In this document: in pieces, positions 1 through 23,802 of the stretch
How positions within the stretch are numbered: the stretch's first letter is position 1
Layout of the letters: every line of letters begins with the position of its first letter
Virus genome (UHGV): UHGV-0247665
Source: a virus
Strand: one strand, 5' to 3'
DNA: 25,422 nucleotides
Made by a program: the position numbers and the translations under genes
Notes under the pieces: model-generated
What the model saw: only the letters and a program-made list of their open reading frames with translations
The model's database searches: none
What the model was told of the DNA's origin: nothing

Positions 1-1443
1 TCCATCAAATGATGCATCTGAATACGTATATACTGATTCACTGCCAGCAATTTTAAACTGTTTAACTGAAGTTATTCTCATCGACTTTTTATGTTTAAAT
101 GTCACTGAGCTTTCAGTATTACTTACAAGATCAATCTGAGGGCTATTCCTTATCGCGATTCCTGACTGTACATAAACGTTATTAAAGTGCGTTTTTTCAG
201 GATTTCCCTTCATTGAAAGGCTCCCGTCATTTTCTGTCAGTAGTAGTCCTTTTACCCTCCAATAGCCGACAATCTGTACGTTATCAATAACTGAATCACA
301 GCTATCGTATACATGCAACCCTATATCCCAGTCATCACCCAATGAATAAGAATCAGGGTTATTGTATCCTTCAATACCATTTTTACTTACCATTATTCTC
401 AGGTTGCGTAACTGTGATGCCCTGTTGATACTAACAGCTACGCTCATGGCTTTTGGTGTAGCAGGAGTAACACCTACAGAATCTTCATTTGTAAACTCAG
501 TGAACTTACAAGATATCCCTTCAACAATTTTAACTGGTCTTTCATTAGAGATGTTAAAAAAATATTTGTTTTTTTCTCCATCACCAGTAAATACAAGATG
601 GGTTCCTTTACTCCAACTTTTTAATAATCTTTCAGGCGCTGGTCTATATGTATCCCAATAATCAATGCCATCACCAATTAAAGACACTCCAGGAGGCACA
701 TCTATGTTCTTAGAAATCATCCATTTACCTGCAGGTATTCTAACGACACTTGCACCAGAATTTATCGCATTAATTAACCATTCAGACGCATCAACTTCAA
801 AATTTAATGCAGCATATCTTTGCTCAAACGGAACAAAATCAAGAGCGTTAACGTTATCCCGCATCTTATCCTGGAACGTTCGGTATACTGCTCCAGAACC
901 ATACTGAATAAACCAACCAAAACCACCAACAACTCCGGCGATTGCAGCATCAACATAATTGCGCATTGATCGATTATTTACAGCATCCTGCTCAAGTGAT
1001 GGATCTGCAAGGTTAGAAATTTTGTTTTGCTTTGCATCGTAATATTTTGCAAGCAAAGATGGTTTCATCAATGCACGTCTGAACCATCCAAAACATTGCT
1101 GGATCAGCATCGTCAGATAGTCAAAGGCATCTTCATGCACCTCGGGGAAAAATTTTCCCTGATTACGAAGATCAGTCTCCTGCACCACATCAAGCACACG
1201 ATCTATCGTAATTCGCCATCCAGCAGCAAGCGGCGACGGAAGAACAACAGAACCGCCACTATAAGTGCCCGCCCCTGTTACCGTATAACCGGTATCCAGA
1301 ACCAATTCTGTTACGTTCCCGTTCAGGTCAGACACCTGAACAACCAGGTCGGATTTTTTGAAAATACGGAAGGTATACGGAAATGATGTCGTAGCTCCGT
1401 TACCTGTGTATTCGTTGTGGTCAACTTCGGTTGAGACCGTCAT
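1..1443 (-). CDS. Tailspike / tail fibre protein, N-terminal 481 codons (3' end lies beyond the window start)
   Basis: ATG at 1443 (minus) with GGAG 7 nt upstream. My own minus-strand translation is open from 1443 to position 1; it is absent from the ORF track only because no stop falls inside the window. N-terminus MTVSTEVDHNEYTGNGATTSFPYTFRIFKKSDLVVQV... has the architecture of the T7 gp17-type N-terminal tail-attachment domain. A later segment (ALDFVPFEQRYAALNFEVDASEWLINAINSGASVVRIPAGKW) resembles the start of beta-helix depolymerase domains. GC content drops 3' of roughly nt 900. Confidence 0.8.
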   Translation of the reverse strand, partial: MTVSTEVDHNEYTGNGATTSFPYTFRIFKKSDLVVQVSDLNGNVTELVLDTGYTVTGAGTYSGGSVVLPSPLAAGWRITIDRVLDVVQETDLRNQGKFFPEVHEDAFDYLTMLIQQCFGWFRRALMKPSLLAKYYDAKQNKISNLADPSLEQDAVNNRSMRNYVDAAIAGVVGGFGWFIQYGSGAVYRTFQDKMRDNVNALDFVPFEQRYAALNFEVDASEWLINAINSGASVVRIPAGKWMISKNIDVPPGVSLIGDGIDYWDTYRPAPERLLKSWSKGTHLVFTGDGEKNKYFFNISNERPVKIVEGISCKFTEFTNEDSVGVTPATPKAMSVAVSINRASQLRNLRIMVSKNGIEGYNNPDSYSLGDDWDIGLHVYDSCDSVIDNVQIVGYWRVKGLLLTENDGSLSMKGNPEKTHFNNVYVQSGIAIRNSPQIDLVSNTESSVTFKHKKSMRITSVKQFKIAGSESVYTYSDASFDG

Positions 1444-1547: not shown

Positions 1548-1562
1548 TTACCTTTCGGGTAA
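1548..1562. promoter_or_regulatory. TTACC-N5-GGTAA palindromic motif copy (ATTACC-tttcg-GGTAAT)
   Basis: In the divergent intergenic region between the tailspike start (1443) and the LexA box/85-aa gene; followed by TTGCAA. Confidence 0.5.
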
Positions 1563-1601
1563 TTTGCAAAACGTGCTGGATAGCAAACAAATTATTTGAT
1601 A

Positions 1602-1617
1602 CTGTATAAATATACAG
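1602..1617 (+). promoter_or_regulatory. LexA (SOS) box, CTGT-N8-ACAG
   Basis: 20-mer TACTGTATAAATATACAGTT (about 1600-1619) matches the E. coli LexA consensus TACTGTATATATATACAGTA at 18 of 20 positions with both CTGT and ACAG arms intact. It is preceded by TTGATA (1596-1601) and lies 21 nt upstream of the ATG at 1639. Confidence 0.75.
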
Positions 1618-1638
1618 TTATTACATGGAGAAGATAAG

Positions 1639-1896
1639 ATGCAGCAGTATCACTATCCACTGGAAGACGGATTTACCGAAAGGATTCACACGCCGGGAGG
1701 CGTCAGGTCACTGGTGGAGGGATCGCACTTGATGAAATTACTCCGGGATCTCGATAAGGATGGATTTAATGTCGATGGCCCACTTGCCGAACTGACTGCA
1801 CTGATTAACTACGTCACCAGCTCACAGATGTCTATGCAGGATCTACAAACACATCTCGACTATTGTGCCGAACAATTACGAAAACAAACCAGATAA
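1639..1896 (+). CDS. Small protein (85 aa) homologous to the C-terminal domain of the downstream antirepressor; candidate SOS-controlled antirepressor or modulator
   Basis: ORF track 1639..1896; GGAG at 1627-1630, 8 nt before the ATG. Its sequence (HTPGGVRSLVEGSHLMKLLRDLDKDGFNVDGPLAELT...DLQTHLDY) aligns with antirepressor residues HSPSGVLGLTENSLLMNLLNQLQEDGHDVSGAAAELT...DIQTHAEY at roughly 35-40% identity by eye. Confidence 0.7.
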   Translation: MQQYHYPLEDGFTERIHTPGGVRSLVEGSHLMKLLRDLDKDGFNVDGPLAELTALINYVTSSQMSMQDLQTHLDYCAEQLRKQTR

Positions 1897-1927
1897 GGTT
1901 TGCAATTACCAAATGGAGTGCTTATAT

Positions 1928-1942
1928 TTACCTTTGCGGTAA
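1928..1942. promoter_or_regulatory. TTACC-N5-GGTAA palindromic motif copy (TTTACC-tttgc-GGTAAA)
   Basis: Between the 85-aa ORF stop and the antirepressor leader; followed by TTTACA. Confidence 0.5.
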
Positions 1943-1977
1943 ATTTACATCGCACTCCTCTTGTGCCATAGTAATCG

Positions 1978-1999
1978 GGCACTGGCAAAATCCAGTGCC
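1978..1999 (+). other. Perfect 8-bp inverted repeat stem-loop (GGCACTGG-caaaat-CCAGTGCC) in the antirepressor leader
   Basis: Read directly from the sequence; no U-run follows, so it is not a classical terminator. Confidence 0.5.
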
Positions 2000-2035
2000 G
2001 GGATTGGCGTCACGAGTTACTACAGAGGCACATAT

Positions 2036-2055
2036 GCCGCATAAGCGGTTTTTTT
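2036..2055 (+). terminator. Weak intrinsic terminator-like hairpin (gCCGC-ataa-GCGGt followed by TTTTTTT)
   Basis: 4-5 bp stem followed by seven T residues, 140 nt downstream of the 85-aa ORF and about 150 nt upstream of the antirepressor start. Confidence 0.35.
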
Positions 2056-2208
2056 ATGTGTAAAGCGCACCTATTCTATGGTGGGCTGTGTGGGGGCACC
2101 GAAAGGTGCGCCGGGTCCTTTGTAGCCGGTTACGCCAACCCTGCACAGTTCACCACCAACCGATTGGCGTCGGTAGTGGTGATTAACCTAACTACAAAGG
2201 TGATCGCT

Positions 2209-2895
2209 ATGACTGCTAACGTAACCCCATCTGTTTTTCATTTTGAATCAGAAGCAACCATTCGAGCCATTGTTATTGATGGAAATCCTTGGTTTGTTGC
2301 CAAAGACGTTATTAAAGCTCTTCAACTGACAAACCCCACTATGTCAATAAAATCTCTTGATGATGATGAAAGGGCTAAATTTAACTTAGGCCGTCAAGGC
2401 GAAACCAATATTATCAACGAGTCAGGCCTCTACACACTGTTCCTCCGCTGCCGCGATGCGGTGACACCAGGCACTACCCCCTACCGCTTTCGTAAATGGG
2501 TTACAGGTGAGGTTCTTCCTCAGATCCGCCGCACCGGAAGCTACATTAAAAACTCGCTCCCGCAGGAAGAACGCATAAAGATGGTTGCCGACCAGGTAGC
2601 CAACGCCACGGCGTCAGCAGTAATGCAGGCGATGAAGATAGAGAACAAAACCTACAGCGCCCCGCTGAAGCCCGGCTACCGCAGTTTGATTCACTCGCCG
2701 TCTGGTGTTCTCGGCCTGACGGAGAACTCACTGCTGATGAATCTGCTGAACCAGTTACAGGAAGACGGGCACGACGTATCGGGCGCGGCGGCGGAACTGA
2801 CCACCATGTTCTGCTACATCGTCGGTGTGAGTAAATGCCTGCGTGATATCCAGACCCACGCGGAATACATCAACGACAAGGCAGGGGTCTTCTGA
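2209..2895 (+). CDS. Phage antirepressor with N-terminal Bro-N domain (228 aa from ATG 2209)
   Basis: In frame within ORF track 2056..2895. The ATG at 2209 is preceded by AAAGGTGA. N-terminus SVFHFESEATIRAIVIDGNPWFVAKDVIKAL...NIINESGLYTLFLRCRD...FRKWVTGEVLPQIRRTGSY matches the Bro-N consensus. The sequence upstream of 2209 within the tracked ORF is structured leader, not coding. Confidence 0.85.
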   Translation: MTANVTPSVFHFESEATIRAIVIDGNPWFVAKDVIKALQLTNPTMSIKSLDDDERAKFNLGRQGETNIINESGLYTLFLRCRDAVTPGTTPYRFRKWVTGEVLPQIRRTGSYIKNSLPQEERIKMVADQVANATASAVMQAMKIENKTYSAPLKPGYRSLIHSPSGVLGLTENSLLMNLLNQLQEDGHDVSGAAAELTTMFCYIVGVSKCLRDIQTHAEYINDKAGVF

Positions 2896-2976: not shown

Positions 2977-3093
2977 GAAAGTTGATTTGTAACATTTTAG
3001 TTTGTAGTTACCGTGATGGTTTTGCTGCAGAAAGTTAACTAGTCAAAATCACACCGTATGTAAGTCACGTCTGTTCCCGTATGGGAGGATGAT

Positions 3094-3312
3094 ATGTTTA
3101 AATTTGATATGCAACTCAACCAAAACTATGCCTCTTTTTACCATCCAGAAACTGGTAAAGCTGTTTTCGTTGACTCTTTCGATAATGAAGAATTTGATAT
3201 CAGAATTGGGACCCTACGCCAAAGTAAGCATGTTGCTACTGTACGTGCATCCAATGATGATGAATTAAATCAAAAAATAAGTGAGGCGACCTCCCGTTAT
3301 CTATGTCTATAA
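3094..3312 (+). CDS. Hypothetical protein (72 aa), first gene of an AT-rich two-gene cassette
   Basis: ORF track 3094..3312; strong SD GGGAGG 5 nt before the ATG. Local GC is well below the flanking phage DNA. No recognisable family. Confidence 0.6.
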   Translation: MFKFDMQLNQNYASFYHPETGKAVFVDSFDNEEFDIRIGTLRQSKHVATVRASNDDELNQKISEATSRYLCL

Positions 3313-3680
3313 CAGAACAACAACTCATTGATCTTGAGGATGAGATTAACGAGATCTTGCAAGAAGATGCGGCAAGAATTCACTTTTCATTTCACGCAGC
3401 ATATGAACGCCTGAACGACGAGAGGAACAAACCGCCAATTACTCTTGCTGAGCTTGAAGATGTGTTTAAATCGTTTATATCTGCACATCTGCAGACTGTT
3501 TTGGATTTTGCTGAAGGTACAACTTTCACCATAAAGTGCAACAAAAGCGCCCTTCATTTTCCTTGCGCCATTGTACACGAAAGAGAGTTTGGGAAAACGT
3601 GGGTTATCCAAAACGTCATTACAGCCATGAGGAAAGTGGGATTCAAGTCTAAAGATTCTATTATCCTCGAAGTTAATTAA
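3303..3680 (+). CDS. Hypothetical acidic protein (125 aa), second gene of the cassette, translationally coupled
   Basis: ORF track 3303..3680. Its ATG at 3303 overlaps the upstream stop at 3310-3312 (ATGTCTATAA) with no independent SD in range. Followed directly by a terminator. Confidence 0.65.
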   Translation: MSITEQQLIDLEDEINEILQEDAARIHFSFHAAYERLNDERNKPPITLAELEDVFKSFISAHLQTVLDFAEGTTFTIKCNKSALHFPCAIVHEREFGKTWVIQNVITAMRKVGFKSKDSIILEVN

Positions 3681-3701
3681 GCCCGCACTGAGGGCTTTTT
3701 T
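3679..3701 (+). terminator. Intrinsic terminator (AAGCCC-gcactga-GGGCTT then TTTT)
   Basis: 6-bp stem with a 7-nt loop and a U-run immediately after the TAA at 3678-3680. Confidence 0.6.
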
Positions 3702-3773
3702 ATGGACGAAACAAAAGTCAGTGCTACACTCATTGACGCCACATTGAGGTGGCTTATAGATGGAAATTTCACA

Positions 3774-3935
3774 ATGAAAAAAGCATTTGCTGCACTGTTC
3801 GTTTTGTTGTCTCTGGTAGCTTCAACTCAGGCCTTTGCCGGTCGTTGTCAGCACGACAGCGACACTGCTGCTGACGGCTCCCGCTGCGGTGGGCGTTCTG
3901 CGGATTCCCGCCCGGGTGGCGGTGGCATTCGTTAA
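3774..3935 (+). CDS. Small secreted protein (53 aa precursor; Sec-type signal peptide, about 31-aa Gly/Arg-rich mature part with two Cys)
   Basis: Internal ATG of ORF track 3702..3935. MKKAFAALFVLLSLVASTQAFA is a canonical signal peptide with an AxA cleavage motif; the mature part is GRCQHDSDTAADGSRCGGRSADSRPGGGGIR. Possible promoter TTGACG (3733-3738) and TATAGA (3755-3760). The SD is weak. Confidence 0.5.
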   Translation: MKKAFAALFVLLSLVASTQAFAGRCQHDSDTAADGSRCGGRSADSRPGGGGIR

Positions 3936-3958
3936 AAACAAGGCCGCGAAAGCGGCCT
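3931..3958 (-). terminator. Intrinsic terminator for the minus-strand lipoprotein gene (7-bp GC stem with GNRA-type loop, U-run on the minus strand)
   Basis: AGGCCGC-GAAA-GCGGCCT at 3941-3958. On the minus strand it is followed by TTGTTTTTAAC. It sits between the convergent genes ending at 3935 (+) and 3967 (-). Confidence 0.55.
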
Positions 3959-3970
3959 GTGACATGTCAC
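3959..3970. repeat. 12-bp perfect palindrome GTGACATGTCAC (copy 1)
   Basis: Exact match; contains the TGA stop of the lipoprotein gene. Confidence 0.6.
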
Positions 3971-4347
3971 GCAACGCAATTATTACCGCGCCATGTAACA
4001 TTTTTAATAATCTTATCAGCACCAAACTCAACGTAAACAGAGCAACTGAAATGGAGTGTATAACCGCCATCAGTTGTTGCGTATGTGTTTGAATATATAG
4101 TATTACCAATTAGATTAGACGTAGTATTATACGTTGTGGTTTGTGGTACGTTATAACTACCAGAGCTTGAGTAAACATACACTCTGTTTCCATCTGGAGA
4201 TGTAAGCTCTCCCTGAGGATACCCCCACTGCTGAACCATTGCGTCTATACTCTGCCCGCGCCACGTAAGCATATTTCTTTCAAACTGTGCAGCTGACTGG
4301 CATCCAACGAGAAGCATAAATCCAAAAATCAAAAATACTTTTCTCAT
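3967..4347 (-). CDS. Outer-membrane lipoprotein (126 aa); candidate lysogenic-conversion or superinfection-exclusion protein
   Basis: In frame within ORF track 3967..4383. The ATG at 4347 is preceded by GGGGG with a 5-nt spacer. N-terminus MRKVFLIFGFMLLVGCQSA carries a lipobox (LLVGC). The mature part is Ser/Thr/Asn/Tyr-rich. The stop codon lies inside the GTGACATGTCAC palindrome. Confidence 0.75.
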   Translation of the reverse strand: MRKVFLIFGFMLLVGCQSAAQFERNMLTWRGQSIDAMVQQWGYPQGELTSPDGNRVYVYSSSGSYNVPQTTTYNTTSNLIGNTIYSNTYATTDGGYTLHFSCSVYVEFGADKIIKNVTWRGNNCVA

Positions 4348-4432
4348 AATTACCCCTATCATGGAAAAACAGCACCAATCCACAAATTAACTAGTTATTT
4401 TATTATTCTTCCGAACAATACAATTCCGAATA

Positions 4433-4566: not shown

Positions 4567-7041
4567 TTATTGCGGAGTGACATCCTGTGGTCGCCACCAG
4601 TATGTCTGGTTAAACTCTTTCTTCGAACGTTGCTCCATTTTACGCAAATAGCCTGGTGAAAAATACTCCTGCATCTGGTTAAAGATCATGTGATCGAGAG
4701 CCGCCTTCAAGTACCAGAGATTCGCACCAGGCATCAAACCTTTCCCCAGCTTCACCAGATCACCACCAGTCTGCTCACTCTTCCCTTCCACAGCATTTAA
4801 CGGTATGCCCTGAGCAATCTTCACTACGTCATCAACCAGACCAGCTACCGGGCCAAGCATCGACGCCAGCGCGCCGCTTCCGTACCTAGTGTGATCTGAC
4901 AATAAAAAGTCACCGTAAAGGCCAAGACCACCACCTTTCAGTAGAGCACCAAGCCAGAATTTTGCGGCATCTTCTCCTGTCATCTCTCGAGGATTACGAC
5001 CAGACGCAAGGTCGTTAAGTTGCTGCGACAAAGCGCCAAGAATGGTCGTACTGGCAATAAACGTCGCAATATATGCCGCACGCCCACCAGCAGACGGCAT
5101 ACCCATAGCGCGTGACCAGTGACGCATAACAACCGAGATAGGGAACGATTTAAACAGGAAAACACTTCTCGTTAATTCACCTTTCCATGTTCCACGCTGA
5201 ATACCAGAACCGGTTATCAGTTGCTCACGTGCTCCCGGTGTAATAACAGCCATATCAACTTCTTCAGTTACGGCACCGAGCAGTTTACGCATTGCCTCAA
5301 ATTTCACGCGTTCAGGCTCACCAAGATGTTTAACTGCTGAATCAGAGATACGCATAATGCTTTCCGGTGTCAGCATCGTATTATTACCGTTCCCCCAGTC
5401 CTCCTGTTTCGCCAGCTTCCATACGCTCCAGTCTGTGTCAGTAATCCCTTTGCTTTTCAGGATACGAAAATCAGAGTCATCGAGGCTACGAAGGTCTGGT
5501 GTCCGTGACACTACTTCTCCCAGGCTTCCCATCATGGTTACGCCATAGGCGCGCTTGTGCGCATCTGACCATGCTGTAAGCCCACTGGCACGCATTACCG
5601 CCGTTGCCGCCCAACGAGACACTGACGGCCCCATATTATCCATCGCCCAGCGGTTAACGCTGCCAAGTAGAGATTCCATCGCCAGACCAGCGCGGCGCGC
5701 CCGCGCAAGTTCTGTACGGTTCGTTGGGTCCATAGCTTCAAGCTGGTTGCGGAATAACTGGTTCATTGGAAGGTTGGTAACCTTCGCAGACAGATACATG
5801 GTTCCAAGATCAGAGAACGATGACAGCAACGCGGATCCGAGTCTGCTGGCAACCAGCCAGTTGCGGATATTGTCAGACCATCGCGCGATGTGCGGATTCG
5901 CTACAGGCTGTGTCTTTCCGGAAATAAAGTTGTACAGATTCTCTGTGTTGTTCGCCAGCCGCTCGACTTTACCGGTTTTACTCGGGTTAGCTGTTGCCGT
6001 TTCTGCCTTCACCTGATCAAGAAGAGAGCGGAAAACATGATCGGGGTTTGGGCCATATGTTTCCACCAGTGCAATATCTTTACTGATACCTTCCAGGTGA
6101 CCGACCATGATTTCCCATAGAGAGCGATCGCCATAAAGTTGCTGATATTGCAGATAGGAATCTGCATCTTTGAAATGTATCTGTCGTGATGCATTACCAC
6201 GGTTAGCACGTGCGCCGGAAATTCGCATTCCGGTATCAGTAAGCTTATTCAGCCCACCAGTAGCGATCGTGTTATAAGCCTCTCCAAGAAATGAAGACAA
6301 CTCGGCATCGTTCATCAGTTGTCCATCGGCTCGGATATAATATTTGCGATCCAGCTTACCTATAACATCGCTAACCCACTTATCCTTTGATACTGCCCCA
6401 ACCTTTTCCATAGAATGATGTTGAGGGATCCCCCAGTTTTCGAGATAGCCAATGTCCCCACCAGCATCATTAAACCGGCGGCGCAGCAGCTCTGTAACTT
6501 CTCTCCACGCCTTAGCACCGTTTCTTGCTTTAGCATTGCCAGTATTTTGCCCCCGCATTTCATATACCAGGTCACGTACGCCCGCTTCATCTTCAAACAG
6601 ACCAAAAAAGCGAGGATCAACTGCTTCGAATGCCTCCTGCAATTGACTCAATGCATAATCACGGGTGGCTTTTGTTCTGGATTCAACAGAGAGGAAATTA
6701 GATTTACCGTCTGCATTAAAAGCTATAGTACGGTTAAGAGCGCCAAGTTTCCCATCAGCCCCTTGATAGCTATTGATAAATTTATCCAATCTCTGACGCG
6801 CGGCTATAGTGAGAGCCACACGACGTTTCTTTAATGCCGCTTCTCGCTGTAATTCTTCAGATGCCAATTGTGCTGCTCGATATAGCCGCTCTGATTCGGA
6901 AAGTTGTCGCCACGACATAGGGTCATCACGAGCAATGGAGCGCATATTTCGATAAATGCGGTCTTCAATGTTCTGTATTTCTCGCGCCGTTAACATGCGC
7001 TGCGCCGCCTGCTGAACCGCTTGTATACATTCCTGTCTCAT
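4567..7041 (-). CDS. Internal virion / ejection protein (824 aa)
   Basis: ORF track. Last large gene of the minus-strand core-protein block, with a Gly-rich hydrophobic C-terminal region typical of membrane-inserting ejection proteins. Functional analogue of T7 gp14-16 by position and size only. Confidence 0.75.
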   Translation of the reverse strand: MRQECIQAVQQAAQRMLTAREIQNIEDRIYRNMRSIARDDPMSWRQLSESERLYRAAQLASEELQREAALKKRRVALTIAARQRLDKFINSYQGADGKLGALNRTIAFNADGKSNFLSVESRTKATRDYALSQLQEAFEAVDPRFFGLFEDEAGVRDLVYEMRGQNTGNAKARNGAKAWREVTELLRRRFNDAGGDIGYLENWGIPQHHSMEKVGAVSKDKWVSDVIGKLDRKYYIRADGQLMNDAELSSFLGEAYNTIATGGLNKLTDTGMRISGARANRGNASRQIHFKDADSYLQYQQLYGDRSLWEIMVGHLEGISKDIALVETYGPNPDHVFRSLLDQVKAETATANPSKTGKVERLANNTENLYNFISGKTQPVANPHIARWSDNIRNWLVASRLGSALLSSFSDLGTMYLSAKVTNLPMNQLFRNQLEAMDPTNRTELARARRAGLAMESLLGSVNRWAMDNMGPSVSRWAATAVMRASGLTAWSDAHKRAYGVTMMGSLGEVVSRTPDLRSLDDSDFRILKSKGITDTDWSVWKLAKQEDWGNGNNTMLTPESIMRISDSAVKHLGEPERVKFEAMRKLLGAVTEEVDMAVITPGAREQLITGSGIQRGTWKGELTRSVFLFKSFPISVVMRHWSRAMGMPSAGGRAAYIATFIASTTILGALSQQLNDLASGRNPREMTGEDAAKFWLGALLKGGGLGLYGDFLLSDHTRYGSGALASMLGPVAGLVDDVVKIAQGIPLNAVEGKSEQTGGDLVKLGKGLMPGANLWYLKAALDHMIFNQMQEYFSPGYLRKMEQRSKKEFNQTYWWRPQDVTPQ

Positions 7042-7046
7042 TTAAT

Positions 7047-8849
7047 TTAACCTCTCAAGAAACACGCCACAGCGACATCAAACAGGCTGGAATCCTGTAT
7101 TGCCTGCTCACTTTCCCTGTTCGCTTCATCCAGTGCTTCACGCGCACTGCGCGATTGTGGATTACCATCATCATCCAGCACGGTGATTATCATGTCAGGT
7201 GATTCAAGCAGCGAGTCTTCAGCTATGCGCAAATCAATATCTCCTGCCTGATCTGACATCATTTTTTGTTCTGCCTGTTGCAATATTTTATCAGGCTCAA
7301 AAGGAGCTACTTCGTCTGGCGTCCTGACCTCTGCTGTTTTATAGAATGAAACAGCCTGAGCATTAAGTTCACTTTCTGCCTGCTGTCTCCGAGCCAGTTC
7401 TGCTCGAGCTTCAAAAAACTGACCGCCAGGCTCATGCGGTGCCAACGCGTTACGAGAAAATTCCAGGCGTTCTTGTGCCTGCCGGATTCGTTGGTCAATA
7501 TCGCGAAGTCTGGCCTGTTTATCTGATCGAGCACGAGATAAAGCCTTACCGCTACCGGCTGGATCTTCTGCAAGAATTTGTGCGCGCTGTTCAGTGAGAT
7601 TTTCAATAATTCGTTGGCTATTAGCGATTTCAGACTGGTAAACCTGTCTATCGCCACGCGGCAAAAGCTGCGCGGCCTGTTCTTCAAGCAACCGATTTTC
7701 TATAGCGCGCGCCGTTACTCCATCATCTACAGATGACAGAGCCTCATTAACTGCCTGAGACAGCAGACTCTTGCGTCCAGGAATTTCACTGAAAGATGCA
7801 GACTCAACAATGCTGGCAACGTCTACAGGTCTCCCCTGGCTAACATCAGACATGGCTTTTCGCAGAGCCTGAATGTGCGAATTACGCGAAAGCACGTTGA
7901 TCGGCACGCCGGGAGCAATATCAATTTCAGCATGATGAGCGGCATTCGCCGCCAGTGCAGCATCGATATCAACTGGTGAAAAATTTGGTGCGCTTGTAGA
8001 CTCGCCGCGAGAGTTAATAAATCTGCCGACACCACCAAACGCCACCCCAAGAACAGCATCAATAGCAATTGCCTGTCGATCCAACACATCATACTGGTTA
8101 GCCATTTCGCTATAGCCACCATCACGAAGCGTTTTTGCAGTAAGCCCACGCTGTGCCATACCGAACGCAATATTTGTACCTGCGGCATAGGCAATATCTG
8201 GCGTTGCACGTACTGCTGTTGCTGCGGCGCGTCGCACTGAACTTTCACCCGTCCGCGCAAGCTGAGCCGCCACACCTTCCGCCAGCGCACCACCAGCACG
8301 TAACCCGAGGCTCATAGGGATCAGTGTTCCGGCACCAGCAGTAATACCCTGCACTAATCCCGCTTCCTGCGCCGTCCTGAAATCAACACCCTGTGCTGTA
8401 AGCCGTTCAAACTCAGAAAAACCCTGTAGAGAAGTTACCGCCGCAGCACCTCCGACCGGACCACCGAGCGTTGTACCGACAACAGCCTGCCCGCCCATAT
8501 CGAACAACCCATAAAGGACCTGCCCGGCGGTTCCGGTTGTCGCGGCATCAGGCGTCAGCCGCTTAACCTGCTGCTCTGCTAGTTTTCTCTGCTCAGCAAT
8601 GTATGAAACTGAAGTGTCATTGATCGAGGTGTTTTCGTTAACAAACTGAGCAATCGGGGATACGATTTTATCCATCCCTGCCCATAGCAACTGATCTGGC
8701 TTTGCCACCAGCCCGGAGTACAAACCAGACAATGCCGCTCCTACAGCATTGTCGAAAAAACCAACATCGCTGTTAAAACCAGCTGGATTTGATGCTGCTT
8801 CGTCAAGCTGCTGATTCTGGTTTACTGGATTAAGGCCAAAGTAACTCAT
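7047..8849 (-). CDS. Internal virion / ejection protein (600 aa), Gly/Ala-rich
   Basis: ORF track. Contiguous with its neighbours at 5-nt spacing or 4-nt overlap. Long Gly/Ala-rich hydrophobic stretch. Confidence 0.75.
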   Translation of the reverse strand: MSYFGLNPVNQNQQLDEAASNPAGFNSDVGFFDNAVGAALSGLYSGLVAKPDQLLWAGMDKIVSPIAQFVNENTSINDTSVSYIAEQRKLAEQQVKRLTPDAATTGTAGQVLYGLFDMGGQAVVGTTLGGPVGGAAAVTSLQGFSEFERLTAQGVDFRTAQEAGLVQGITAGAGTLIPMSLGLRAGGALAEGVAAQLARTGESSVRRAAATAVRATPDIAYAAGTNIAFGMAQRGLTAKTLRDGGYSEMANQYDVLDRQAIAIDAVLGVAFGGVGRFINSRGESTSAPNFSPVDIDAALAANAAHHAEIDIAPGVPINVLSRNSHIQALRKAMSDVSQGRPVDVASIVESASFSEIPGRKSLLSQAVNEALSSVDDGVTARAIENRLLEEQAAQLLPRGDRQVYQSEIANSQRIIENLTEQRAQILAEDPAGSGKALSRARSDKQARLRDIDQRIRQAQERLEFSRNALAPHEPGGQFFEARAELARRQQAESELNAQAVSFYKTAEVRTPDEVAPFEPDKILQQAEQKMMSDQAGDIDLRIAEDSLLESPDMIITVLDDDGNPQSRSAREALDEANRESEQAIQDSSLFDVAVACFLRG

Positions 8850-20552: not shown

Positions 20553-20642
20553 ATCAATGACTCCGTACGCAATTAAATTATCACCAATTTAACCACATAT
20601 GATTTATTTATCGTAGATAGTTGACATTTAACGCATGAATTA

Positions 20643-20657
20643 TTACCTTTCAGGTAA
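20643..20657. promoter_or_regulatory. TTACC-N5-GGTAA palindromic motif copy (ATTACC-tttca-GGTAAG)
   Basis: Intergenic, between the 68-aa/portal gene start and the tRNA; a TTGACA hexamer lies at 20621-20626. Confidence 0.5.
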
Positions 20658-20979: not shown

Positions 20980-21056
20980 GTGGCATTAGCTCAGTTGGAC
21001 AGAGCAACCGCCTTCTAAGCGGTTGGTCGCAGGTTCGAATCCTGCATGCCACGCCA
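20980..21056 (+). tRNA. tRNA-Arg (anticodon UCU), 77 nt with encoded CCA
   Basis: Folded by hand: 7-bp acceptor stem GTGGCAT/ATGCCAC, D-arm, anticodon stem ACCGC/GCGGT with loop CTTCTAA (U33, anticodon TCT, A37), T-arm GCAGG-TTCGAAT-CCTGC, discriminator G, CCA. Close to the E. coli argU-type tRNA. Confidence 0.92.
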
Positions 21057-21254: not shown

Positions 21255-21611
21255 ATGAACGACCAGCAAATCGAAAAAGAAATCGTTGAGAAAGGCAAAA
21301 CCGCTCCGCGAGTTACGCCTCAATATATCGAAAGCATCATTCTTGAAGAGCATTTCTTTACTGCTTATGACGGCATTCGTGCTGCCAATATGGGCGTTGG
21401 CGATACGTGGACAGCGCATAAATCTACAGACCTCCTTACTTTCTGCGTACTGGTGCTGAAGAATGGCTTCACCGTCACCGGAGAGAGTGCCTGTGCAAGC
21501 CCGGAAAACTTTGATGCAGAAATTGGTCGGAAAATTGCCCGGCAGAATGCTGTAAACAAAATCTGGATGCTTGAAGGTTACTTGCTGAAGCAGAAGTTAA
21601 GCGAGCAATAA
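21255..21611 (+). CDS. Small conserved phage protein (118 aa); tentatively N4 gp49 / Sf6 gp66-like family
   Basis: ORF track; SD AAGGTGA. The family assignment is recalled from the motif FCVLVLKNGFTVTGESACASPENFDAEIGRKIA and is unverified. Confidence 0.65.
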   Translation: MNDQQIEKEIVEKGKTAPRVTPQYIESIILEEHFFTAYDGIRAANMGVGDTWTAHKSTDLLTFCVLVLKNGFTVTGESACASPENFDAEIGRKIARQNAVNKIWMLEGYLLKQKLSEQ

Positions 21612-23177: not shown

Positions 23178-23770
23178 TGATTACCATCCTGACGTTCTTT
23201 GAGTCGCTTCCTGGCTGCTGCTATGCGATCAGCAATTGTCACATTCACATTAACATCCAGACGTTCTTTGAACGCGTTGACATCAACATGCTTACCAATC
23301 AGCTCAAGGTTCTTCACCTTGTCAGGCCATTTAATTTTTTTGAGGATTGTCTCTATCGAATCCTCGTTCATGTTCATGATGGTCGATGACAGATCAAAGC
23401 CACTAAGCGTAGTGCGCCAGATTTTCGGCCACTCACGGATTGGTTTAAGGCTCCCATCGTCGTTGAGGATGTCGATCACGTCCATCTGGTCGATCTGCAC
23501 CAGGCGCATGAGAACGTAATCAGCACTGACGCGCATTCGTTTGTTGCGCTCCTCCATCAACTCGGCAATCCGTTTTTGAATGCGTTCATCGCGCATCATG
23601 ACACTGGCTTTAACTGCCGCTGTATTTGGGGAGAATCCTGCGTTAATCGCTGCCTGAGTCTGGTTTTCAGGCGTTTTGATGTATGACTGGCAATAAGCCT
23701 CCTGCATTGCTGTTAGTGGCTTAAATTGCGTTGATTTGCGTTTATAGGTTTTAGGTTCAGCAGGCATCAT
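23174..23770 (-). CDS. Terminase small subunit (about 199 aa from ATG 23770)
   Basis: ORF track 23174..23848 uses a TTG start. I prefer the tandem ATGs at 23770 and 23767, preceded by GGTGG, because a terminator hairpin and motif cluster occupy 23771-23848. The LTAMQEAYCQSYIKTPENQTQAAINAGFSPNTAAVKA region resembles small-terminase (Terminase_2-type) N-terminal domains. Confidence 0.75.
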   Translation of the reverse strand: MMPAEPKTYKRKSTQFKPLTAMQEAYCQSYIKTPENQTQAAINAGFSPNTAAVKASVMMRDERIQKRIAELMEERNKRMRVSADYVLMRLVQIDQMDVIDILNDDGSLKPIREWPKIWRTTLSGFDLSSTIMNMNEDSIETILKKIKWPDKVKNLELIGKHVDVNAFKERLDVNVNVTIADRIAAARKRLKERQDGNQ

Positions 23771-23787
23771 AACCACCGTGGTAATAG

Positions 23788-23802
23788 TTACCGTTTTGGT
23801 AA
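23788..23802. promoter_or_regulatory. TTACC-N5-GGTAA palindromic motif copy within a cluster of GGTAATAGT repeats
   Basis: GGTAATAGTTACC-gtttt-GGTAATAGTACC lies 20-40 nt upstream of the small terminase ATG. Confidence 0.5.

Follow-up and report, generated by a model that had tools for sequence, protein, structure and literature searches.

A probably LexA-controlled small antirepressor gene and an adjoining Bro-N antirepressor gene under predicted RNA control in a phiV10-like prophage

The 25,422-nucleotide stretch of virus genome UHGV-0247665 analyzed here (the window) carries, close to its tailspike gene, two antirepressor genes on the plus strand: ant (1639-1896), encoding a small protein of 85 amino acids orthologous to Ant of Salmonella phage SPC32H, and a gene of 228 codons (2209-2895) whose product joins a Bro-N domain to an Ant-like C-terminal domain. 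A LexA (SOS) box precedes ant, and an IsrK-family small RNA (sRNA) and a C4 antisense RNA are encoded between the two genes. Judged by sequence similarity, the window is part of an E. coli podophage prophage of the genus Uetakevirus (phiV10-like, epsilon15 group); the module region shares 92-100% identity with phiV10-like E. coli Uetakevirus podophages, and 129 of 5426 complete E. coli genomes (~2%) cover at least 80% of a 1.7-kb module query.

The LexA box, TACTGTATAAATATACAGTT, lies at 1600-1619 and was recognized by its score and by the conservation of its position across relatives. With a position weight matrix built on 22 E. coli SOS boxes of the literature, it scores 28.0 bits, the best training site having 27.9; the next-best 20-mer of the window reaches 12.8 bits and the maximum over 200 shuffles was 19.3. 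No other strong LexA box occurs in the window: the pattern CTGT-N8-ACAG occurs four times against 0.41 expected, the full box is found only at 1600-1619, and the matches at 422, 16630 and 21172 were rejected as LexA boxes, none exceeding 10.9 bits. The initial annotation had placed a near-consensus LexA box just upstream of an 85-amino-acid open reading frame (ORF), and that is indeed its position, 39 bp before ORF 1639-1896; the matrix scoring which it named as a check puts the 20-mer level with the best E. coli boxes and above the shuffles.

The intergenic stretch that separates ant from the divergent tailspike gene was aligned from the window, phiV10, SPC32H, SPC32N, epsilon15 and Tyrion. 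CTGT and ACAG are unchanged in all of them except SPC32N, and the box of the window matches that of SPC32H column for column. SPC32N departs from SPC32H within the box by a C-to-A change (ACAG to AAAG), reportedly the single-base change of the LexA site that renders Ant constitutive (Kim and Ryu 2013). In each Uetakevirus locus fetched, the top-scoring LexA site stands 39 bp upstream of ant, with scores of 18-28 bits overall (23-28 bits in Escherichia, Salmonella and Enterobacter phages, 18.3 bits in one Klebsiella phage); across these four genera the flanks diverge while CTGT and ACAG persist in the same place. Two candidate core promoters for ant can be read on the plus strand, TGGATA (1577-1582)-17-TACTGT (1600-1605) and TTGATA (1596-1601)-17-TATTAC (1619-1624). 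Both readings (1577-1624) overlap the box, and from these candidate hexamers we infer that the LexA box overlaps the ant promoter. The block TGCTGGATAG and its spacing to TACTGT are invariant in the six phages, whereas the TTGATA and TATTAC hexamers are not conserved.

A ribosome-binding site, GGAG at 1627-1630, lies eight bases ahead of the ATG of ant. The encoded protein matches chain E of PDB entry 5D50 ('Anti-repressor protein', Salmonella phage SPC32H) with 88% identity over residues 2-84 (E = 4e-47) and PHROG 450 at 9e-48; the orthologous gene is annotated 'ant' in SPC32H and SPC32N, and the small Ant of phage ZX5 is 100% identical to that of the window. A Pfam search of the small Ant returned no family, the lone match, DUF724, being below threshold, and the family goes as 'unknown function' in PHROGs (phrog_450) and as 'hypothetical protein' in nearly all RefSeq/NCBI records. 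By this homology the 85-residue protein is itself the LexA-controlled antirepressor. The initial annotation had described a module of the 85-amino-acid ORF followed by a Bro-N gene, and this order is borne out; its view of the ORF as an anonymous leader, with the Bro-N protein as the antirepressor, does not agree with the match to 5D50 chain E. The LexA-Ant switch of epsilon15-like podophages was reportedly described by Kim and Ryu in J Virol in 2013, and the Ant/Rep structure (PDB 5D50 and 5D4Z) is said to come from a PNAS paper of 2016 by Kim et al.

The protein gp40 of phiV10 is a full-length homolog of the SPC32H repressor Rep (5D50 chain A, 4e-42), and ZX5 has been reported to carry the same repressor as phiV10 (PMC9782041). 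According to one study, the Ant tetramer engages two Rep dimers and breaks up the Rep tetramer (PMC9638917), and another, citing Kim and Ryu 2013, states that Ant synthesis in SPC32H follows LexA cleavage (PMC7380047). In addition, a DNA-damaging microcin induced prophages of the phiV10 species in gut E. coli 21- to 47-fold (bioRxiv 10.64898/2026.05.26.727859). The core idea of the initial annotation, that a LexA-repressed antirepressor rather than self-cleavage of the repressor drives induction, finds support in the orthology with SPC32H Ant/Rep.

Downstream of ant, a consensus scan picked up two promoter-like sites on the plus strand. One, TTGCAA-17-TATATT (1900-1928; 9 of 12 matches), has a -10 hexamer that abuts an operator-like palindrome described below and a counterpart in the same place in Tyrion (TTGTAA-17-TATTAT). 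The other, the candidate P(isrK), is TTTACA-17-CATAGT (1944-1972) with TG in front; its predicted start at ~1979 coincides with the 5' end of the IsrK model, and the hexamer pair of Tyrion is identical. The IsrK-family sRNA (1979-2055, plus strand) matches Rfam RF01394 with 65.5 bits against a gathering score of 50 and closes with a Rho-independent terminator (stem at 2036-2049 and a run of seven T, to 2055), the only intrinsic terminator on the plus strand of the region; the terminator scan turned up none in the stretch from the stop of ant (1896) to isrK. The C4 RNA follows at 2074-2160 on the plus strand; it scores 79.5 bits on Rfam RF01695 (gathering threshold 45) and spans model positions 1-87 of 87. 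Neither RNA had been noticed in the initial annotation. Both RNAs exceed the Rfam gathering thresholds also in phiV10, TL-2011b, Tyrion and ZX5, where they precede the Bro-N gene, and both are absent by Rfam from SPC32H and epsilon15, in which ant is directly followed by a terminator; therefore the isrK-C4-Bro-N unit is a cassette inserted behind ant in the phiV10/Tyrion/ZX5 lineage.

C4 presents two pairing sites on the plus strand, b' (CCUUUGUAG, 2117-2125) and a' (ACGCCAA, 2132-2138), of which a' is single-stranded and b' is left in an 11-nucleotide loop of the minimum-free-energy fold. Its target in the Bro-N leader (2164-2200, plus strand) consists of a2 (TTGGCGT, 2164-2170) and b2 (CUACAAAGG, 2192-2200), the latter overlapping the Shine-Dalgarno sequence AAGGTG of the Bro-N gene (2197-2202). 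All nine positions of b'-b2 and all seven of a'-a2 form Watson-Crick pairs. Complementarity to C4 and covariation also point to decoy sites inside IsrK on the plus strand, a1 (TTGGCGT, 2004-2010), complementary to a', and b1 (CTACAGAGG, 2020-2028), whose pairing with b' (as CUACAGAGG) includes one G-U.

Pairing was counted over seven loci, the control being the partner slid by 1-3 columns. Every cell of the a helices, a'-a2 included, is paired (100%), and 3 of the 7 positions show compensatory changes; pairing of C4 with the leader (a2/b2) holds in 83.8% of cells against 22-45% after sliding, and that of C4 with IsrK (a1/b1) in 85.7%, seven pairs being compensatory. Overall, C4 pairing amounts to 84-86%, compared with 22-47% when the partner is slid. 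One nucleotide has been lost jointly from b', b1 and b2 in phiV10 and TL-2011b. In Tyrion a' reads AGACCAA and both a1 and a2 read TTGGTCT, and in APSE-8 a' is ATGCGAA with TTCGCAT as a1/a2, while b' is CCUGUUUAG with CUAAACAGG as b1/b2. Covariation supports the C4/IsrK pairing; as to its regulatory outcome, the simplest reading is that C4 would directly occlude the ribosome-binding site of the Bro-N gene and that titration by IsrK would relieve this.

Between c4 and the antirepressor gene no icd-like ORF was found; all that is present is a 15-codon ORF at 2078-2125 and, at 2056, an in-frame ATG that is not conserved. The former, which lies inside C4 and ends in b', is all that is open where an equivalent of Gifsy-1 orf45 might stand, and such an equivalent was rejected. 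The latter lies in the T-run of IsrK and opens a frame of 279 amino acids continuous with the Bro-N gene; ORF 2056-2895, a 51-codon extension of Bro-N through C4 recalling P1 Ant1/Ant2, was likewise rejected, its ATG standing in the terminator T-run without a ribosome-binding site. In phiV10 that frame is closed by stops, and the 15-codon ORF is not conserved there either. Both may be remnants of a leader ORF of the orf45/icd type.

The Bro-N gene itself was correctly placed downstream of the 85-amino-acid ORF by the initial annotation: it occupies 2209-2895 on the plus strand and its Bro-N domain (residues 18-104, nucleotides 2260-2520) matches Pfam PF02498 at 3.8e-19, with 69.5 bits against a gathering score of 25.6. 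The Ant-like domain of the protein (amino acids 147-224, nucleotides 2647-2880) shares 40% identity with the small Ant (E = 8e-16), its C-terminus matches 5D50 chain E at 1e-13, and the protein as a whole matches both PHROG 130 ('anti-repressor Ant') and PHROG 450. Given the homology of this domain with the small Ant, the two proteins probably target the same Rep, through the C-terminal domain of the latter. The fusion of Bro-N with an Ant domain is kept in TL-2011b, Tyrion and ZX5. Compared with the antirepressor ORF4 of ZX5, the Bro-N protein has 81% identity over the whole length and is nearly the same throughout the last 150 residues; overexpression of ORF4 lowered the number of lysogens from 1e9 to 1e6, a drop of ~1000-fold (PMC9782041). 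A homolog search with the C-terminal domain returned 20 proteins, among them standalone forms of 95-97 amino acids and one fusion to an AntA/AntB domain, which do not amount to a useful census. The protein was also considered as a homolog of Gifsy-1 AnrP, and this was rejected for lack of similarity.

Palindromes of the type TTACC-N5-GGTAA are dispersed over the window, with five exact copies (at 1548, 1928, 2962, 20643 and 23788) and one with a single mismatch, against 0.48 expected. Three of them frame the module: TTACCTTTCGGGTAA (1548-1562) in the interval from which the tailspike and ant genes diverge, TTACCTTTGCGGTAA (1928-1942) between the two promoter-like sites upstream of isrK, and TTACCCCAAAGGTAA (2962-2976) downstream of the Bro-N gene and ahead of the moron ORFs at 3094-3935. 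The first is conserved in position in SPC32H, epsilon15, phiV10 and Tyrion; the second in phiV10, Tyrion and TL-2011b, with the arrangement between two promoter-like sites kept in Tyrion; and the third has a counterpart in TL-2011b. The genome of phiV10 holds 14 such sites (with at most one mismatch, against 0.78 expected), all of them intergenic, some in the rep-cro spacer and others where the early and late operons begin, and the RefSeq record of epsilon15 labels the orthologous sites 'protein_bind: repressor'. From their sequence and distribution, the palindromes look like a set of putative Rep operators in the style of P1 C1. Those of the window (1548-1562, 1928-1942, 2962-2976, 20643-20657 and 23770-23802) stand at the starts of transcription units, namely those of terS, the portal operon, the tailspike, isrK and the moron ORFs.

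A stem GGAGUGC/GCACUCC (1915-1958) encloses the palindrome upstream of isrK, giving a composite hairpin (z = -3.8 for 1880-1985) that is conserved in phiV10, while conservation of the outer stem does not extend to Tyrion or TL-2011b. As the terminator of ant it was rejected (probably it is not one), on account of this outer stem and of the lack of a proper U-tract; it may attenuate read-through from ant. In TL-2011b an insertion of ~0.8 kb (3019-3850 of that phage) separates ant from isrK.

Considering these features together, we read the region as an induction module of a phiV10-like prophage in which two antirepressor genes answer to different inputs, LexA in one case and the IsrK/C4 RNAs in the other, and we give this reading a probability of about 85%. 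In the lysogen, host LexA sitting on the 1600-1619 box, across the putative ant promoter, would keep the 85-residue Ant off; upon DNA damage, RecA-stimulated cleavage of LexA would allow Ant to be synthesized. By homology to SPC32H, which is the model for all steps after LexA cleavage, Ant would bind the C-terminal domain of the non-cleavable helix-turn-helix repressor Rep and dismantle its DNA-binding tetramer, leading to induction. Downstream of ant, the transposable-looking cassette would bring in P(isrK), IsrK, C4 and the gene for the Bro-N::Ant-domain protein. Its C4 would pair through a'/b' with a2/b2 in the Bro-N leader, and the pairing at b2 would cover the ribosome-binding site and block translation, as in immI of P1/P7; the a1/b1 copies in IsrK would titrate C4 and so release Bro-N translation. 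Through its C-terminal domain, the Bro-N protein most likely acts against the same Rep, which would make it a second route of derepression, not directly dependent on LexA. Inactivation of Rep may in turn raise transcription of the cassette, because the putative operator at 1928-1942 sits between the promoter-like sites upstream of isrK.

Several observations weigh against this two-input reading. The rep gene lies outside the 25-kb window, so that the cognate target of Ant is suggested by the relatives; the consensus promoter scan picked up neither of the two ant promoter readings; and a conserved upstream ORF of the orf45 type, on which the translational coupling of Gifsy-1 depends, is not present, for which reason the mechanism of IsrK may differ here from that of Gifsy-1. 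Moreover, the Bro-N gene of phiV10 (3310-3989 of that phage) is frameshifted within the Ant-like domain and split into gp23 and gp22, and the second antirepressor would therefore be dispensable. The phiV10 frameshift may represent a pseudogene or an error of the reference sequence.

A closer connection between the two halves of the module can be imagined, although we consider it doubtful. Since the stretch from the end of ant to isrK yielded no intrinsic terminator, the SOS-induced mRNA of ant would carry IsrK as its 3' untranslated region, titrate C4 and unlock translation of Bro-N::Ant, thus coupling the SOS and RNA switches in cis. The ant-isrK transcript would then end at the IsrK terminator with its a1/b1 sites serving as decoys, and Rep leaving the 1928-1942 operator would boost the cassette further. 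Possible attenuation at the hairpin (1915-1958) and the 0.8-kb insertion tolerated there in TL-2011b might weaken such a coupling. If true, it would constitute a two-stage feed-forward commitment switch made of a LexA-controlled antirepressor and an antisense-RNA sponge.

Other explanations were weighed against the reading with two separately controlled antirepressors. The region 1596-2895 could be a single LexA-controlled operon with the Bro-N protein as effector and the 85-amino-acid ORF as an accessory or leader, which we hold to be improbable. It is true that ant and the Bro-N gene share a strand, that no intrinsic terminator was found between 1896 and isrK, and that the IsrK terminators of Gifsy-1 are partly read through (PMC4825925); however, the 85-residue protein is of the crystallized antirepressor type (the 5D50 chain E match), SPC32H and epsilon15 have the LexA box and small ant without any Bro-N gene, the terminator at 2036-2055, the promoter-like sites and the predicted C4 occlusion of the Bro-N ribosome-binding site all intervene, and the Bro-N gene of phiV10 is frameshifted. 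Accordingly, the part of the initial annotation that made LexA the switch of the module holds for the small ant and not for the Bro-N gene, which, with a terminator, promoter-like sites of its own, an operator-like palindrome and C4 pairing, is not plainly LexA-driven. Far less credible still, and in our opinion close to negligible, is that the LexA-like palindrome is a chance match or the site of another protein and that ant is expressed without SOS induction. The Klebsiella homolog, with a degenerate left half-site and 18.3 bits, would fit this; yet the box of the window equals the best genuine E. coli boxes and stands far above the shuffles, CTGT and ACAG are fixed in place across four genera while their flanks diverge, the difference between SPC32H and SPC32N falls inside the box, and DNA damage does induce phiV10-type prophages.

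A further alternative, which overlaps in part with the two-input reading, concerns the role of the second gene: the Bro-N::Ant protein would act in trans at superinfection, as an anti-immunity function like Ant of P22 and P1, against the Rep of resident prophages, with C4 conferring immunity. We regard this as possible, though on balance somewhat unlikely. It is favored by the a'/b' specificity of c4, which reportedly defines the heteroimmunity of P1 and P7 (Citron and Schuster are said to have established this in 1990). At least three a'/b' specificity variants occur among close relatives (the window, phiV10 and Tyrion), as diversifying immunity predicts, and the phiV10 record labels its Bro-N gene 'putative anti-immunity protein'. 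The overexpression data for ZX5, on the other hand, cannot separate induction from anti-immunity.

Among known systems, Ant/Rep of SPC32H is the nearest to the first half of the module. The two share an Ant with 88% identity, an ant gene divergent from the tailspike, a LexA box 39 bp ahead of the ATG and the same upstream operator palindrome, and Rep homologs exist in the close relatives of the window. They differ in that SPC32H and epsilon15 have the small ant alone, followed by a terminator, whereas the window, phiV10, Tyrion and ZX5 possess the isrK-C4-Bro-N::Ant cassette. Tum of phage 186, AntC of N15 and GfoA/GftA/GfhA of the Gifsy prophages are LexA-controlled antirepressors as well (Lemire et al. 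2011, PMC3121763); there, too, a small LexA-repressed antirepressor encoded outside the immunity region inactivates a non-cleavable repressor, but the protein family is a different one, and no sequence relationship came to light, Pfam giving nothing for the small Ant.

The second half resembles immI of P1/P7, where, according to a paper on APSE phages that cites Citron and Schuster 1990, c4 represses ant through a2 and b2 (PMC7313666). Common to both are a C4-family RNA co-oriented with and upstream of the antirepressor gene, the complementarity of a'/b' to leader sites a2/b2 of which b2 coincides with a ribosome-binding site, a further copy of the target (a1/b1) upstream, specificity variants among relatives, and an operator of the primary repressor at the promoter. 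In contrast to P1/P7, the window has no conserved icd-like ORF upstream, so that the ribosome-binding site under b2 is that of the antirepressor gene; its antirepressor is a fusion of Bro-N with an SPC32H-type Ant, and the place of a1/b1 is taken by an IsrK-family sRNA with a terminator. APSE phages have been described as having the same isrK-c4-Bro-N order, again with complementary a'/b' sites (PMC7313666). IsrK of Gifsy-1 switches on translation of AnrP, the antirepressor encoded downstream, and is required for induction in stationary phase (PMC4825925). The isrK-orf45-anrP locus of that prophage (Hershko-Shalev et al. 2016) has in common with the window an IsrK with terminator, a C4-family RNA (STnc1160), an antirepressor gene and complementarity between the RNAs; it differs in that AnrP is unrelated to the Bro-N protein, orf45 is not conserved in the window, and no LexA box stands near the locus in Gifsy-1, while the cassette of the window stands directly behind a LexA-controlled ant.

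The initial annotation had also likened the position of the module to that of immI in P22 (mnt-arc-ant, sar), with LexA as the switch. The position is analogous, both antirepressor modules adjoining the tailspike gene. None of the neighboring ORFs has a Pfam match to Arc or Mnt, and no sar RNA match was found in the window. As sole switch LexA does not hold, there being C4/IsrK control too: on its sequence features the region also contains an RNA switch like that of P1 immI, and LexA is not the only control. TL-2011b carries a P22-type arc-ant module at 5142-7200, where Rfam also finds a sar RNA (44.8 bits) and a YafO-family toxin is encoded; this brings that prophage to three antirepressor genes in total.

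The flanks of the module agree with its placement by the initial annotation between the tailspike and the ejection or internal-virion genes: the tailspike gene (1-1443, minus strand, starting at 1443) diverges from ant on one side, and a gene for a virion structural protein of 824 amino acids (4567-7041, minus strand) lies on the other, with four small moron ORFs in between. The N-terminal head-binding domain of the tailspike (MTVSTEVDHNEYTGNG...) is of the conserved epsilon15 type, and the GC content of the remainder, 36-40%, suggests that the receptor-binding domain has been exchanged; in E. coli, the closest match of the protein is annotated as an endosialidase beta-propeller protein. The moron ORFs (3094-4383) encode 72, 125 and 77 amino acids on the plus strand and a lipoprotein-like protein of 138 amino acids on the minus strand. 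Their PHROG matches are of unknown function, save for one 'membrane associated protein' of the moron category, and this cargo is unlike that of phiV10 and SPC32H at the same position. Elsewhere in the window, a plus-strand insert consisting of tRNA-Arg(UCU) (20980-21056) and an ORF of 118 amino acids (21255-21611; PHROG 322, unknown function) lies within the late operon of the minus strand, between its terminase and portal genes, and a TTGACA hexamer with a Rep-type palindrome (20622-20657) lies just upstream of it.

Every component of the module is of a known kind, and it is their combination that is mildly interesting. The LexA-antirepressor part is already known for SPC32H and no new class of mechanism is involved. 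The study of ZX5 dealt only with the Bro-N protein and makes no mention of LexA, SPC32H or the small ant (PMC9782041). Recognition of the small Ant corrects an annotation as 'hypothetical' or of 'unknown function', and a small gene recognized as an SOS-controlled antirepressor would account for the response of phiV10-type prophages to DNA-damaging agents and bacteriocins. Together, the LexA-controlled Ant and the putatively RNA-controlled Bro-N::Ant fusion would provide a compact natural case of two inputs acting on one repressor.

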